Made by a program: the position numbers and the translations under genes
In this document: positions 8,560 to 54,858 of the stretch, one piece after another
Layout of the letters: the number at the start of each line of letters is the position of its first letter
How positions within the stretch are numbered: position 1 is the stretch's first letter
Source: a virus
Taxonomy: Duplodnaviria > Caudoviricetes
DNA: 64,000 nucleotides
Virus record (IMG/VR): IMGVR_UViG_3300014203_000001
Location: 181,714 to 245,713 of that record
Reading direction: 5' to 3' (one strand)
The notes under the pieces: generated by a model
The model's input: only the letters and a program-made list of their open reading frames with translations
Told to the model about the DNA's origin: nothing
The model's database searches: none

Positions 8560-8578
8560 TATATATTATATAAGTGAC
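8560..8578 (+). promoter_or_regulatory. Early-type phage promoter motif
   Basis: TATATATTATATAAGTGAC. Confidence 0.7.
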
Positions 8579-50506: not shown

Positions 50507-52282
50507 ATGAATCAGGCTGAATATATTCATAATTACATTGAGCAAACTTGTGATAAATTCAATCCAGAGTTATTTACAAGATCAGATACGGAGATTATAG
50601 ACGAGTTAAAGAAAATCGTCTTATCTTGCCAAAGAGATGGATTCTTTAAAATCCAAGTAAAAGGATTCCGTGTTGTTGAAGGATATTATGAAGTAAATAG
50701 TATCCTTCAAGAGTATGAAGATTTTCTACTATCTAAAAAATCCTCTAATGCTAGAGGAACAGAAGATAATAGATATAGTCACATAGACTTAAAATCTTCA
50801 GACCTTAAACTTCTTATAGTTACATACTATATTGAAGTTAAGGACGAGCGTGATACAATTGATGTCATAATTGCAGTACCAAGAGTTGTCGATAAATTCT
50901 ATTTTAGAATTAACGGCAGCTACTATTCTGCTATGTATCAAATTGTAGACGCATCGACTTATAATAGCAACACAAGCAAATCCGCTAAACATAGCGTTAC
51001 ACTTAAAACTATCTTTAAACCAATACGAGTATTTAGAAACGTTATTAAGAAGGGTAGTGATAAGAATGGATTAAAAACTACTTCTGGTGAAGAAGTAGAC
51101 GTTACAGCGTATGACAATAACAGTTTCTCTAAATCTGTTCCTGTTGCACTATATATTTTAGCTAAAATGGGATATTATGGAGCTATGGAATTCTTAGGAA
51201 TTTCTAACTCTATTGTCTTATCAAATCATGATCCAGAAATGCCAGAGGTATATTATACTTTCCATCCAAAGAAGAACTCCAATGTGCATATAAATGTACC
51301 TAGAATGTTATATGATGGTAATTTTGTTATCCAACATATAACGGTTGCTATGTGTGATAATATCAAAAAAGATACGGATGTAGAAGAGTTGTATTCTAGA
51401 AGTTATTGGGTATCGGCTTTGGGCGCTAAGTTTAATTTAAACAATAGTTATGATAAAGGTCTAAATATTTTAGATTCACTTGAACATGATTACGATATCG
51501 GAACCAGACAACAGATACATCTTCCTATTGAATATAAGAAAGATATATACTGCGTCCTAAGATGGATGGTTGGCGAGTATAATAATCTGAAACTGAAGGA
51601 TAATCTTAATATCATGACTAAGAAGCTTAGGTGTGCGGAATATCAAGCTTCAATATATGCTAATAAGATTGCTAATAGCATGTATCGTTTATCACACCAA
51701 GGGAATAAATTAAGTCTTAGTTCCATTAGGAAAGTTATCATAACCAATCCAATGTATTTGGTTACTCAGATTACCAGATGTCAATTAGTTAACTTTAGAA
51801 ATATTGTTACTGATATGGATTCACTTCTTGCATTAAAGTTTACATATAAAGGGATAAGCGGTATTGGAGAAAAAGGTGGAAATTCTATCCCTGAGATATA
51901 TAAACATTTGCATGTAAGTAATATGGGTATTCTAGATCCAGATGCGTCTTCACCATCAGATCCAGGTATTAGTGGCAGTATATTACCAATGCTGAAAACA
52001 TATGATGGCGGATATTTCTCTGAATTCGAAGAACCAATAACTGCAGAAGAAGAATACGCTAAACTATATAACTCATATAGGGAAGCTAGAGGTCTAACTG
52101 AGATATTGGAATTTAAGAGAAAAGTATTAGATGACAATACAATATCAGATGAAGAAATTTTGCTATCTAAAGATTGTGCAGATATCACAACTGATCTTAT
52201 GCAATCTACGGTAGCAGCAACTGAAGAAACAGAATTTATAGGACTACCATTAGATGGTAGTGGAAGGATCTACTATGAGTAA
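50507..52282 (+). CDS. Multisubunit RNA polymerase beta subunit, N-terminal half
   Basis: AVPRVVDKFYFRINGSYYSAMYQIVD and HLHVSNMGILDPDASSPSDPGISG (RpoB-like regions). Confidence 0.85.
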   Translation: MNQAEYIHNYIEQTCDKFNPELFTRSDTEIIDELKKIVLSCQRDGFFKIQVKGFRVVEGYYEVNSILQEYEDFLLSKKSSNARGTEDNRYSHIDLKSSDLKLLIVTYYIEVKDERDTIDVIIAVPRVVDKFYFRINGSYYSAMYQIVDASTYNSNTSKSAKHSVTLKTIFKPIRVFRNVIKKGSDKNGLKTTSGEEVDVTAYDNNSFSKSVPVALYILAKMGYYGAMEFLGISNSIVLSNHDPEMPEVYYTFHPKKNSNVHINVPRMLYDGNFVIQHITVAMCDNIKKDTDVEELYSRSYWVSALGAKFNLNNSYDKGLNILDSLEHDYDIGTRQQIHLPIEYKKDIYCVLRWMVGEYNNLKLKDNLNIMTKKLRCAEYQASIYANKIANSMYRLSHQGNKLSLSSIRKVIITNPMYLVTQITRCQLVNFRNIVTDMDSLLALKFTYKGISGIGEKGGNSIPEIYKHLHVSNMGILDPDASSPSDPGISGSILPMLKTYDGGYFSEFEEPITAEEEYAKLYNSYREARGLTEILEFKRKVLDDNTISDEEILLSKDCADITTDLMQSTVAATEETEFIGLPLDGSGRIYYE

Positions 52283-53398: not shown

Positions 53399-53442
53399 TA
53401 ATATAAGGATGCACCTTTGTGCATCCTTTTTATTTTTTCGAT

Positions 53443-53461
53443 TATATATTATATTTATGAA
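53443..53461 (+). promoter_or_regulatory. Early-type phage promoter motif (histidine kinase)
   Basis: TATATATTATATTTATGAA. Confidence 0.68.
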
Positions 53462-53486
53462 GTATATAATAGAAAGGAGATAAAAT

Positions 53487-54161
53487 ATGAGTATAGCAAT
53501 TGAAAGAAAAGAACTACGTAGGCTAAATGGTTTGAATATAGTGGGGGAAATGGCTGCTGGGATGGCACATGAAATTCGAAATCCTATGACTACAGTACGA
53601 GGATATGTCCAGTATATAAGTGCAAAAGACACTAAGTATACACAGCAATTTGAGATTATGTTAGAAGAGCTAGATAGAGTTAATCTAATTATAACAGAGT
53701 TCTTAACTTTAGCTAGAGATAAAAAGGTTGAATTGAAGCGTTGCGATCTCAATAATATGGTACACAATATATATCCTCTTATCAATTCAGATGCGATATT
53801 ACATAATAAAATAGCGTCTATAGATTTGCATACAATACCAGAGATACTAATAGATGAGAAAGAAATACGTCAGCTAATATTAAACTTAACGCGTAATGGT
53901 CTAGAAGCTATGGATGAAAAGAAAACCTTAACTATAGCTACGTTTACAGATAAAGATTCTACTGTTCTTGCTATAAGAGATGAAGGACATGGAATAGATC
54001 CAGAAGTGCTTAAGAATATAGGCACTCCTTTTGTTACAACTAAATCTAACGGAACAGGTTTGGGTTTAGCTATATGCTACAGTATTGCTAATAGAAATCA
54101 TGCAGAAATAACAATAGATACGAATACTAATGGGACTACATTTTATGTAGCTTTTAAATAA
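53487..54161 (+). CDS. Sensor-less histidine kinase (HisKA + HATPase_c), sporulation-kinase-like
   Basis: AHEIRNP H-box, NLTRNGLEAM N-box, DEGHGI G1, PFVTTK F-box, GTGLGL G2; only about 12 residues precede the DHp domain. Confidence 0.93.
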   Translation: MSIAIERKELRRLNGLNIVGEMAAGMAHEIRNPMTTVRGYVQYISAKDTKYTQQFEIMLEELDRVNLIITEFLTLARDKKVELKRCDLNNMVHNIYPLINSDAILHNKIASIDLHTIPEILIDEKEIRQLILNLTRNGLEAMDEKKTLTIATFTDKDSTVLAIRDEGHGIDPEVLKNIGTPFVTTKSNGTGLGLAICYSIANRNHAEITIDTNTNGTTFYVAFK

Positions 54162-54209
54162 AAGAGGATTGTTCCTCTTTTATTTTTTATAATCATTCTT
54201 CTTTTCAAT

Positions 54210-54228
54210 TATATATTATATAGATGAG
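54210..54228 (+). promoter_or_regulatory. Early-type phage promoter motif
   Basis: TATATATTATATAGATGAG. Confidence 0.75.
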
Positions 54229-54273: not shown

Positions 54274-54858
54274 ATGAAAAATGCCGAAGTGGATGATTTT
54301 AGTTATTTAGATGATCAAGCAATGAAAAATAAAACTTCCTTACCAACTCCAATGGAAGAGGCTAGAAACAATCCTGATTCCTTTGATTGGAATTACAGAT
54401 ACAATTATAGGGTTTTTACAGAAGATTTTATTCGTGAGTTTAAAGATAGAGTAAACTGGGATTATGTTAATTGGTGTAACGCATCAGAATCTTTTGCAAG
54501 AGAATTCCTTGAGCATATTGATTGGACTGATCTTACTAGCTATAGTAACTTATCAGAAGATTTTATTCGTGAGTTTAAAGATAATATTGAATGGGATATT
54601 GTGTCTGAACGTCAGACTTTATCTGAATCGTTTATTAGAGAATTTCAAGATGAAGTAGATTGGATACATATTTCTATGTATCAGAAACTATCAGAAGATT
54701 TTATTCGTGAATTTAAAGATAGAGTAAACTGGGTTGGTATAGTTAGCCACCAAAACGTTTCAACTTCATTTGTTAATGAATTTGATATTGATTGGGAGGC
54801 TCAACGAAAAGCTATAGATGATCATCAGGAGGCATTAGAAGAAAAATACGGGTGGTAA
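54274..54858 (+). CDS. Tryptophan-repeat protein
   Basis: About six 22-aa repeats of type LSEDFIREFKDRVNW. Confidence 0.8.
   Translation: MKNAEVDDFSYLDDQAMKNKTSLPTPMEEARNNPDSFDWNYRYNYRVFTEDFIREFKDRVNWDYVNWCNASESFAREFLEHIDWTDLTSYSNLSEDFIREFKDNIEWDIVSERQTLSESFIREFQDEVDWIHISMYQKLSEDFIREFKDRVNWVGIVSHQNVSTSFVNEFDIDWEAQRKAIDDHQEALEEKYGW

Follow-up and report, generated by a model that had tools for sequence, protein, structure and literature searches.

The window analysed here, a 64,000-nucleotide stretch of DNA that forms the last 64 kb of the virus record IMGVR_UViG_3300014203_000001, encodes P0001, a histidine kinase of 224 amino acids without a sensor. The whole record is a virus genome of 245,713 bp in IMG/VR, has direct terminal repeats and is estimated to be complete. 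It belongs to a jumbo phage of the AR9/PBS1 type, a distant relative of the Bacillus phages AR9 and PBS1. We hold with high confidence that P0001 is an intact and selected derivative of a phage sensor kinase from which the sensor has been deleted. This view rests on the completeness of the kinase core, on full-length kinases found in sister phages, on the position of P0001 among them and on the conservation of its residues.

Architecture, ancestry and conservation of the kinase

Judged by its domains and motifs, the gene product is an intact class-I (HisKA) histidine kinase core. The domains HisKA (PF00512) and HATPase_c (PF02518) were recognized with 53.4 and 68.5 bits at cut-offs of 26.9 and 26.4 bits, respectively. 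The phospho-accepting H28 lies within MAHEIRNP (H-box HEIRN), and the ATP-binding boxes are complete, with N133 and N137 in the N box, D165-x-G167-x-G169 in the G1 box, F182 in the F box and G189-x-G191-x-G193 in the G2 box. An initial annotation of this stretch had described a protein of 224 amino acids with all catalytic boxes and with neither sensor nor transmembrane region, and both parts of this description were borne out. A transmembrane segment was ruled out by the hydropathy of the protein (best 19-residue Kyte-Doolittle mean 0.95). Only 19 residues stand ahead of HisKA, and there is no PAS or other sensor domain, unlike in the usual sporulation kinases. A longer N-terminus of the open reading frame (ORF) is blocked by an in-frame stop upstream. 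This stop, together with the terminator and the promoter directly upstream, also excluded that P0001 is a mis-called piece of a longer gene.

The AlphaFold2 model of P0001 (mean predicted local distance difference test score 80.3) has two helices, at residues 2-47 and 49-74, and after them an alpha/beta catalytic domain whose ATP lid is floppy. As modelled, the helix 2-47 runs N-terminally as the stub of a HAMP-DHp signalling helix. P0001 aligned over its full length with the solved kinase cores of ZraS (9jfj, 1e-32), of the sporulation kinase KinB (3d36, 1e-27) and of ThkA (3a0r, 6e-26).

Scans of IMG/VR with single proteins, either the kinase or an RNA polymerase subunit of the phage, found nothing; relatives in this database surfaced only when an alignment served as query. 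The alignment scan recovered the contig 3300042922_000827 (G001; 87.8 kb, guanine-cytosine (GC) content 0.31), which matched better than any cellular protein: the C-terminal part of its kinase is 64% identical to residues 1-224 of P0001. G001 represents a sister phage, its TerL, helicase and RNA polymerase beta being 79, 75 and 68% identical to those of the present phage. Its kinase, 575 amino acids long as called by the Joint Genome Institute (JGI), has the architecture transmembrane helix (TM)-dCache_1-TM-HAMP-HisKA-HATPase. The gene is preceded by the same early-promoter motif as the gene for P0001 and followed by a gene for a GNAT acetyltransferase, and the pair is located between terL and helicase (L014:4945-7397). 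The kinase-GNAT pair was present on three more contigs (GC 0.29-0.31), of which one (L017) is near-identical and two (L062 and L063) are divergent. One of the divergent contigs came from a Logan run and has the early motif before the kinase, the other came from another JGI sample. Among these phages the GNAT proteins are 61-64% identical. For the sensor region of the phage kinases, no other close relatives were found in 5.8 billion proteins at E ≤ 1e-5.

A tree of the catalytic cores was calculated with IQ-TREE under LG+C20, with supports given as ultrafast bootstrap/Shimodaira-Hasegawa-like approximate likelihood ratio test. The four phage kinases formed one clade (98/85), which grouped with five dCache kinases from non-phage contigs (100/99) and apart from the PAS-type kinases. 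Four of these five were shown to be chromosomal or to share the signature of such kinases, and the fifth is of unread context. The 224-amino-acid form (G000) was nested within the phage clade as (L063,(L062,(G000,G001))), with supports of 92/86 and 92/59. In the alignment with the sister kinase, its residue 1 falls on the residue that directly follows the HAMP domain. Neither a remnant of the sensor nor a GNAT gene was found elsewhere in the genome of the present phage, and the junction between terL and helicase is empty. In the closest large syntenic relative, G002, the slot between a gene for 176 amino acids and sbcC holds an unrelated ORF of 308 amino acids. On account of the alignment at residue 1, the missing traces of sensor and GNAT, the empty terL-helicase junction and the slot in G002, we conclude that the core was cut exactly at the HAMP/DHp boundary and moved to a variable accessory slot. 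Phylogeny and alignment together indicate that the ancestor of P0001 was a full-length TM-dCache-TM-HAMP sensor kinase borne by a phage, of which only the DHp and catalytic domains survive. The wording of the initial annotation, a kinase 'stripped of its sensor', turned out to be apt, since sister phages keep the dCache-HAMP sensor and the 224-amino-acid form is nested among them.

The conservation of P0001 bears on the view that cassette shuffling left behind a truncated copy without function, expressed or not, that is heading for loss, which we regard as very improbable. In favour of such a remnant, the gene was found in a single phage genotype and is missing from complete distant relatives as well as from the syntenic slot of G002, and no other phage kinase in the clade has so long a terminal branch. 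However, the frame is open and cleanly cut at a domain boundary, and the gene has its own promoter, Shine-Dalgarno sequence and terminator. P0001 retained 83 of the 90 columns that are invariant in eight full-length relatives, and the seven changes are all conservative (L/V, A/V, S/T, K/R, N/D, I/M and I/V); in leave-one-out comparisons, the other relatives had 0-6 changes at invariant columns. The catalytic residues are all intact after about 36% divergence from the sister kinase. The codon composition is fully phage-like, and the GC content at third codon positions (0.21) equals that of the neighbouring phage genes, so the kinase is no recent arrival. Between two full-length phage copies (441 codons), the ratio of nonsynonymous to synonymous substitution rates (dN/dS) was 0.05; the pair of G000 and G001 was left out, as saturation of synonymous sites is to be expected when the proteins share 64% identity. 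Since the three assemblies with the 224-amino-acid gene are 99.9-100% identical, they add nothing on its selection. By the pattern of retained residues the gene is not decaying, and the unconserved, decaying fragment that the initial annotation had considered was not what we found.

Cellular relatives, phage and early cassette

An exhaustive HMMER search returned 662,519 related proteins, the best of which were 55-62% identical and nearly all long multi-domain sensor kinases. The named relatives belonged to Pelotomaculum, Desulfolucanica, Desulfallas, Desulfosporosinus, Sporotomaculum, Syntrophomonadaceae and Selenomonadales and were often auto-annotated as 'sporulation kinase E'. Going by these matches, the cellular proteins closest to P0001 are orphan kinases from anaerobic Bacillota, in the main from spore-forming lineages. 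A response regulator gene beside the kinase was present in none of the six close cellular relatives whose neighbourhoods were read. The likeness to orphan sporulation-type kinases of spore-formers that had been pointed out at first sight agrees both with these relatives and with the six specificity residues treated below. The proposed identification of the host by BLAST failed, as the best cellular matches reached 56-63% identity and came from genomes of about 50% GC, versus 32% in the phage. When GTDB genomes were scanned with the full-length alignment, the generic H-box pattern saturated the search, which yielded catalytic-domain matches only and no host or donor species.

Full-length bacterial orthologues, the orphans P0121 and P0274 from genomes of about 50-54% GC, are 43-45% identical to the phage kinase from end to end. 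P0121, encoded in a metagenome-assembled genome (MAG) of the Selenomonadales, is accompanied by a neighbouring GNAT with 39% identity to that of the phage, and kinase and GNAT were therefore probably captured together. The ancestor of the jumbo-phage clade probably acquired the two genes from an anaerobic bacterium of the Bacillota.

The bacterial kinase-GNAT unit, with a GNAT of about 214 amino acids, is located at L066:7001-9482, and the same unit is present in at least four phage contigs. Two further loci with related kinases were observed. In the bacterial homologue P0105 on a contig from a hydrocarbon metagenome (L007:6608-7689), Arg replaces the phospho-accepting His (MAGGIAREIRNP). A separate PAS ORF of 108 amino acids precedes P0105, which resembles a split pseudo-kinase lacking the His and is located next to ylzJ and a ClpP-like gene. 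A jumbo-sized viral contig (L020:5176-7279; IMG/VR 3300029267_004162, 262.6 kb, GC 0.48) encodes a histidine kinase of 500 amino acids with a 31% identical core; the end of its gene is overlapped by an ORF of 223 amino acids, and the two may form a complete phage-borne two-component pair.

The present phage was recovered from anaerobic metagenomes. A gene at 50507-52282 encodes 591 amino acids of a split RNA polymerase subunit with 29.5% identity to its AR9 counterpart, and all its matches in the phage collection were jumbo phages of Bacillota. Against 50,697 phage records, megablast of the kinase locus gave no match, and tblastn of the kinase gave identities of at most 30.6%, many of the matched records looking like host-genome contigs. 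The absence of a response regulator near the kinase, mentioned in the initial annotation, extends to the whole 245,713-bp record, in which a profile search for Response_reg gave no match at E ≤ 1. Spo0A_C and sigma-70 region 2 were likewise without match in the phage genome, and no tRNA genes were found in the 64-kb window.

The elements flanking the kinase gene are listed in Table 1. The promoter consists of TATATATTAT at 53443-53452, six further nucleotides and G at 53459. It agrees with the experimentally defined early promoter of AR9, AAATATATATTAT-(6N)-G+1, which is used by the injected virion RNA polymerase (PMC5312081). Owing to this homology, we predict that the kinase gene is expressed early and as a self-contained unit. 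The separate early promoter and terminator postulated at the outset were thus both located, as the motif at 53443-53459 and the flanking hairpins, with the attribute 'early' predicted from promoter homology. Genome-wide the early motif occurs in 51 copies, nearly all of them 5' of genes, with the extended consensus TTATATATTATATAnnTGA. Within the window, 22 matches with at most one mismatch were counted versus 4.1 expected, and none of 100 shuffles reached 22. Terminator-like sites are similarly dense, with four in this 1 kb versus 0.1 expected. A late-type AACA motif was not seen in the 88-nt spacer when it was read from the sequence.

Table 1 Features of the kinase cassette and of P0001 (positions in the window)
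Feature	Position	Strand	Basis
Intrinsic terminator of the upstream unit; 10-bp stem, 4-nt loop, T-run	53405-53438 (hairpin 53405-53428)	+	terminator search, sequence
Early (virion RNA polymerase) promoter motif of AR9 type, TATATATTAT-N6-G; predicted start G53459	53443-53459	+	motif match
Shine-Dalgarno sequence AAAGGAG, 7 nt 5' of ATG	53473-53479	+	read from sequence
Sensor-less histidine kinase P0001, 224 amino acids, HisKA and HATPase_c	53487-54161	+	ORF call, Pfam
HisKA/DHp domain, residues 20-77; H28, HExxN motif, specificity residues T35 T36 G39 Y40 Q42 Y43	53544-53717	+	Pfam
HATPase_c catalytic domain, residues 123-223; N, G1, F and G2 boxes	53853-54155	+	Pfam
Intrinsic terminator of the kinase unit; 13-pair stem, T-run	54156-54195 (hairpin 54156-54185)	+	terminator search
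Next early promoter motif, before an unrelated 194-amino-acid repeat protein; ends the kinase cassette	54210-54226	+	motif match

The extended consensus of the early motif is very rigid (TTATATATTATATAnnTGAGCAATA...), with examples in the window at 8560, 10352, 20809, 36244, 37799 and 54210. From many of these copies a transcript would begin with a GAGCAAT...ATTGCATC hairpin; the kinase leader is without that hairpin. The 194-amino-acid protein downstream (54274-54858) has about five tandem repeats of the form S-x-x-F-[IA]-R-E-F-x-D/E-x-[VI]-[DNE]-W and belongs to phrog_3532, with no Pfam family. In G002 (IMG/VR 3300014203_000012; L059:5493-7792), two extra ORFs of 184 and 308 amino acids without PHROG family replace kinase and repeat protein, and the slot therefore appears to be a swap site for early accessory cassettes.

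Predicted target and direction of phosphotransfer

The likely partner of P0001 was deduced from the DHp specificity positions H+7, 8, 11, 12, 14 and 15. These read TTGYQY in P0001 and TTGYQY, TTGYQL and TTGYQM in the phage sisters; bacterial dCache orthologues have T[TA]GYQF and PAS-type relatives TTGFQ[LMI]. Davidson et al. list the six residues for verified sporulation kinases in their Table 1 (PMC6136694). According to this list, KinA (TAGFQL), KinB (TVGFQL), KinC (TSGFQI) and Dtox_1918 (TTGFQL), the latter shown to phosphorylate Spo0F, are directed to Spo0F, and Dtox_3081 (TTGFQF) is predicted to be; the C. acetobutylicum kinases that act directly on Spo0A have NVSAQV, NISAQL and SVGLQL (PMC6136694). 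TTGYQY is identical to the residues of Dtox_1918 and Dtox_3081 at four of six positions, the differences being F to Y and L/M/F to Y. The Selenomonadales MAG that holds the orthologue P0121 (GCA_002482545.1) encodes Spo0A (155.7 bits) and a stand-alone receiver (G011:C19:61085-61417, locus L153), in which alpha-1 (DDQPGIRRLLIEV) corresponds to QGILEV, the pattern of Spo0F in B. subtilis and D. acetoxidans. The residues support a Spo0F-type receiver, rather than Spo0A directly, as the predicted entry point. The Spo0A-dependent route thought possible in the initial annotation was upheld in so far as the residues match verified phosphorelay kinases; those of the direct Spo0A kinases were not matched. 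As an observation on the bacterial side, the receiver of the MAG suggests a Spo0 phosphorelay in this lineage of Negativicutes.

Our preferred, though tentative, interpretation is that P0001 acts as a signal-independent early kinase that phosphorylates itself on H28 and provides input to the host Spo0 pathway. That it acts on this pathway at all is, in our estimate, an evenly balanced matter; if it does so, it would somewhat more probably be a net phosphodonor than a phosphatase. The injected virion RNA polymerase would transcribe the kinase cassette within minutes of infection. P0001 would then dimerise via its DHp helices and autophosphorylate on H28 without any signal, and the phosphoryl group would pass to a Spo0F-type receiver of the host, or to Spo0A directly where the relay is absent. 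The level of Spo0A~P would rise and bias the infected cell to the transition state or to sporulation, for instance with the phage genome carried into the spore. PBS1-type phages were some of the earliest for which carriage in spores was demonstrated. A working autokinase is favoured because E29 and every ATP-binding box have been kept along a long branch (0.6 changes per site).

Several observations weigh against a kinase that feeds the Spo0 pathway. N32 of the HExxN phosphatase motif is kept, so a phosphatase is chemically equally possible. The tyrosines of P0001 at positions 12 and 15 differ from the residues of every verified kinase, and the signature T-[TA]-G-[FY]-Q-x is common to about 260 of the 269 PAS/dCache orphan kinases examined, few of which have been tested. 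E. coli AtoS has a similar signature, which is hence not exclusive to sporulation. Matches to NCBIfam models were similar for AtoS (184.5 bits), KinD (160.6 bits) and ZraS (155 bits), all below threshold and restricted to the core. The Spo0B C-terminal domain gave no match in the Selenomonadales MAG, clostridial Spo0B proteins being divergent. The sensor-less form was seen only in the one phage genotype represented by the three assemblies, and the kinase appears to be dispensable for the phage lineage, because the more distant complete relatives have no such kinase. Finally, P0001 has a terminal branch about double the length of those leading to its sisters, which could reflect adaptation to life without a sensor or relaxed constraint.

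The conserved N32 leads to the opposite direction of action, which we consider somewhat unlikely: as a phosphatase or phosphate sink, the sensor-less dimer would mainly dephosphorylate Spo0F~P or Spo0A~P or reverse the relay. Sporulation would then be blocked, the infected cell would stay vegetative and the lytic cycle would be completed. The HExxN motif (H28, E29 and N32), which is needed for HisKA phosphatase activity, is intact as a whole, and the specificity residues speak for this function in the same way as for a phosphodonor. Sporulation-inhibiting orphan 'kinases' are documented in PtpA and PtpB of C. difficile, and KinC and KinD are bifunctional (PMC11210211). Blocking sporulation would pay, because sporulation limits the spread of phages in plaques of B. 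subtilis (PMC12991052). However, a pure phosphatase would not need the ATP-binding boxes and E29, all of which are conserved along the long branch. The sequence itself does not separate the two directions, and either would be biologically sensible: sporulation curtails phage spread, yet gives spores that carry phage (PMC12991052).

A distinctly unlikely alternative is that P0001 addresses another response regulator of the host, of the NtrC/AtoC type or another orphan, and reprograms metabolism, envelope or defence instead of sporulation. AtoS as best NCBIfam domain score, with KinD and ZraS close behind, and ZraS as best solved match would fit such a partner. The conserved GNAT neighbour likewise suggests a role outside what is known of the Spo0 pathway. 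However, KinB 3d36 (TAGFQL) is the only one among the three closest solved kinases that has the signature, and the residues of ZraS (SSGLKY) and ThkA (TIGFMR) differ. Moreover, the relatives are orphans not paired with NtrC-type regulators, and the MAG with the orthologue possesses both Spo0A and the Spo0F-like receiver.

P0001 might also act without catalysis, as a dominant-negative or decoupling subunit that forms mixed DHp dimers with a dCache-HAMP orphan kinase of the host and disconnects its sensor. Bacterial orthologues from the same subfamily share 56-60% identity with the phage core, the whole DHp domain and the signalling-helix stub are retained, and hetero-oligomeric action has been proposed for PtpA and PtpB (PMC11210211). 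A poison subunit, however, would not need a fully conserved catalytic domain. The strong selection on the complete sister kinases (dN/dS 0.05) makes it likely that the family consists of enzymes in their own right, and no host orthologue was identified; we thus find a decoupling role improbable.

Extended to the sister phages, the Spo0 interpretation becomes speculative, and we put it forward with considerable reserve: the jumbo-phage clade of anaerobic spore-formers may run its own input into the host sporulation phosphorelay, and the deletion of the sensor in the present phage would be a hard-wired decision. In most members a membrane kinase would be made early, and its extracellular dCache domain would let the virus read an environmental ligand and set Spo0A~P, so that the virus chooses between lysis and entrapment in a spore. 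If true, virus-encoded environmental sensing would be coupled to the control of host cell fate via phosphotransfer. The occurrence of full-length and sensor-deleted kinases in one phage lineage amounts to a natural paired experiment. With this pair it becomes testable whether a virus manipulates, or senses for, the dormancy decision of its host, and how removal of the sensor affects the balance of kinase and phosphatase. It also appears that a virus independent of host transcription has captured a two-gene locus of a host (kinase and GNAT), preserved it under strong purifying selection and later remodelled it.

Comparison with known systems

With the sporulation kinases, namely KinA-E of B. 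subtilis, KinB of G. stearothermophilus (PDB 3D36) and Dtox_1918 of D. acetoxidans (PMC6136694), P0001 shares the domains HisKA and HATPase_c, an H-box of the HEIRNP type, the orphan state of the gene and the specificity pattern T-[TA]-G-[FY]-Q-x. It differs in that the gene is viral, has no PAS, Cache or transmembrane sensor and encodes TTGYQY, with Y at the aromatic as well as the aliphatic position.

KinD of B. subtilis carries an extracellular double-PDC (dCache-type) sensor between two transmembrane helices, ahead of the HisKA core. The sister-phage proteins P0271-P0273 have the same layout with a HAMP domain added, and P0001 corresponds to their catalytic core. P0001 missed the equivalog cut-off of the NCBIfam KinD model (NF053867; 160.6 versus 775 bits), and the alignment was limited to the catalytic half. 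With a match to the catalytic part only, KinD is an architectural analogue of the phage family and not an orthologue, and P0001 is without the sensor. KinD functions as a bifunctional kinase/phosphatase (PMC11210211) and delays sporulation.

Phages of spore-formers are known to carry truncated spo0A genes, which encode the effector domain only, and sigF/sigG-like sigma factors (PMC10294663, PMC9429907). The truncated Spo0A of phages and P0001 are alike in that a dormancy regulator of the host has lost its input domain and the host signal is bypassed. In contrast to phage Spo0A and sigma factors, P0001 would act at the top of the pathway via phosphotransfer and not via DNA binding. Unlike the phages with these sporulation regulators, the present phage has neither Spo0A_C nor sigma-70 genes. 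The word 'kinase' does not occur in the main text of a gut-phage survey of sporulation regulators. Phrase searches of the literature on phage histidine kinases returned no paper, and a phage kinase that enters the sporulation pathway at its top was not found described.

AgrC is a membrane quorum-sensing receptor of the kinase class HPK10, encoded together with agrB and agrD in a temperate phage. In the C. difficile phage phiCDHM1 it represents the best-known phage histidine kinase, as part of a quorum-sensing cassette (PMC3901668). AgrC and P0001 are both phage-borne histidine kinases of host origin without a response regulator of the phage; P0001, however, consists of a HisKA core, and its phage is of the AR9-like jumbo type and relies on its own RNA polymerases.

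Orphan HisKA proteins that tune Spo0A~P up or down are known from C. difficile (PtpA, PtpB and PtpC) and C. acetobutylicum (CA_C0323, CA_C0903 and CA_C3319) (PMC11210211, PMC6136694). Unlike P0001, these clostridial orphans are cellular, possess sensors and act directly on Spo0A, with the residues NVSAQV, NISAQL and SVGLQL. With the phage cassette of dCache-HAMP kinase and GNAT, as defined here, P0001 shares the catalytic-core clade, without the sensor, the GNAT neighbour or the position at terL. Host-derived dormancy regulators in phages are thus already known; what is added here is a family of full-length sensor kinases in sister phages and a demonstrable deletion of the sensor.

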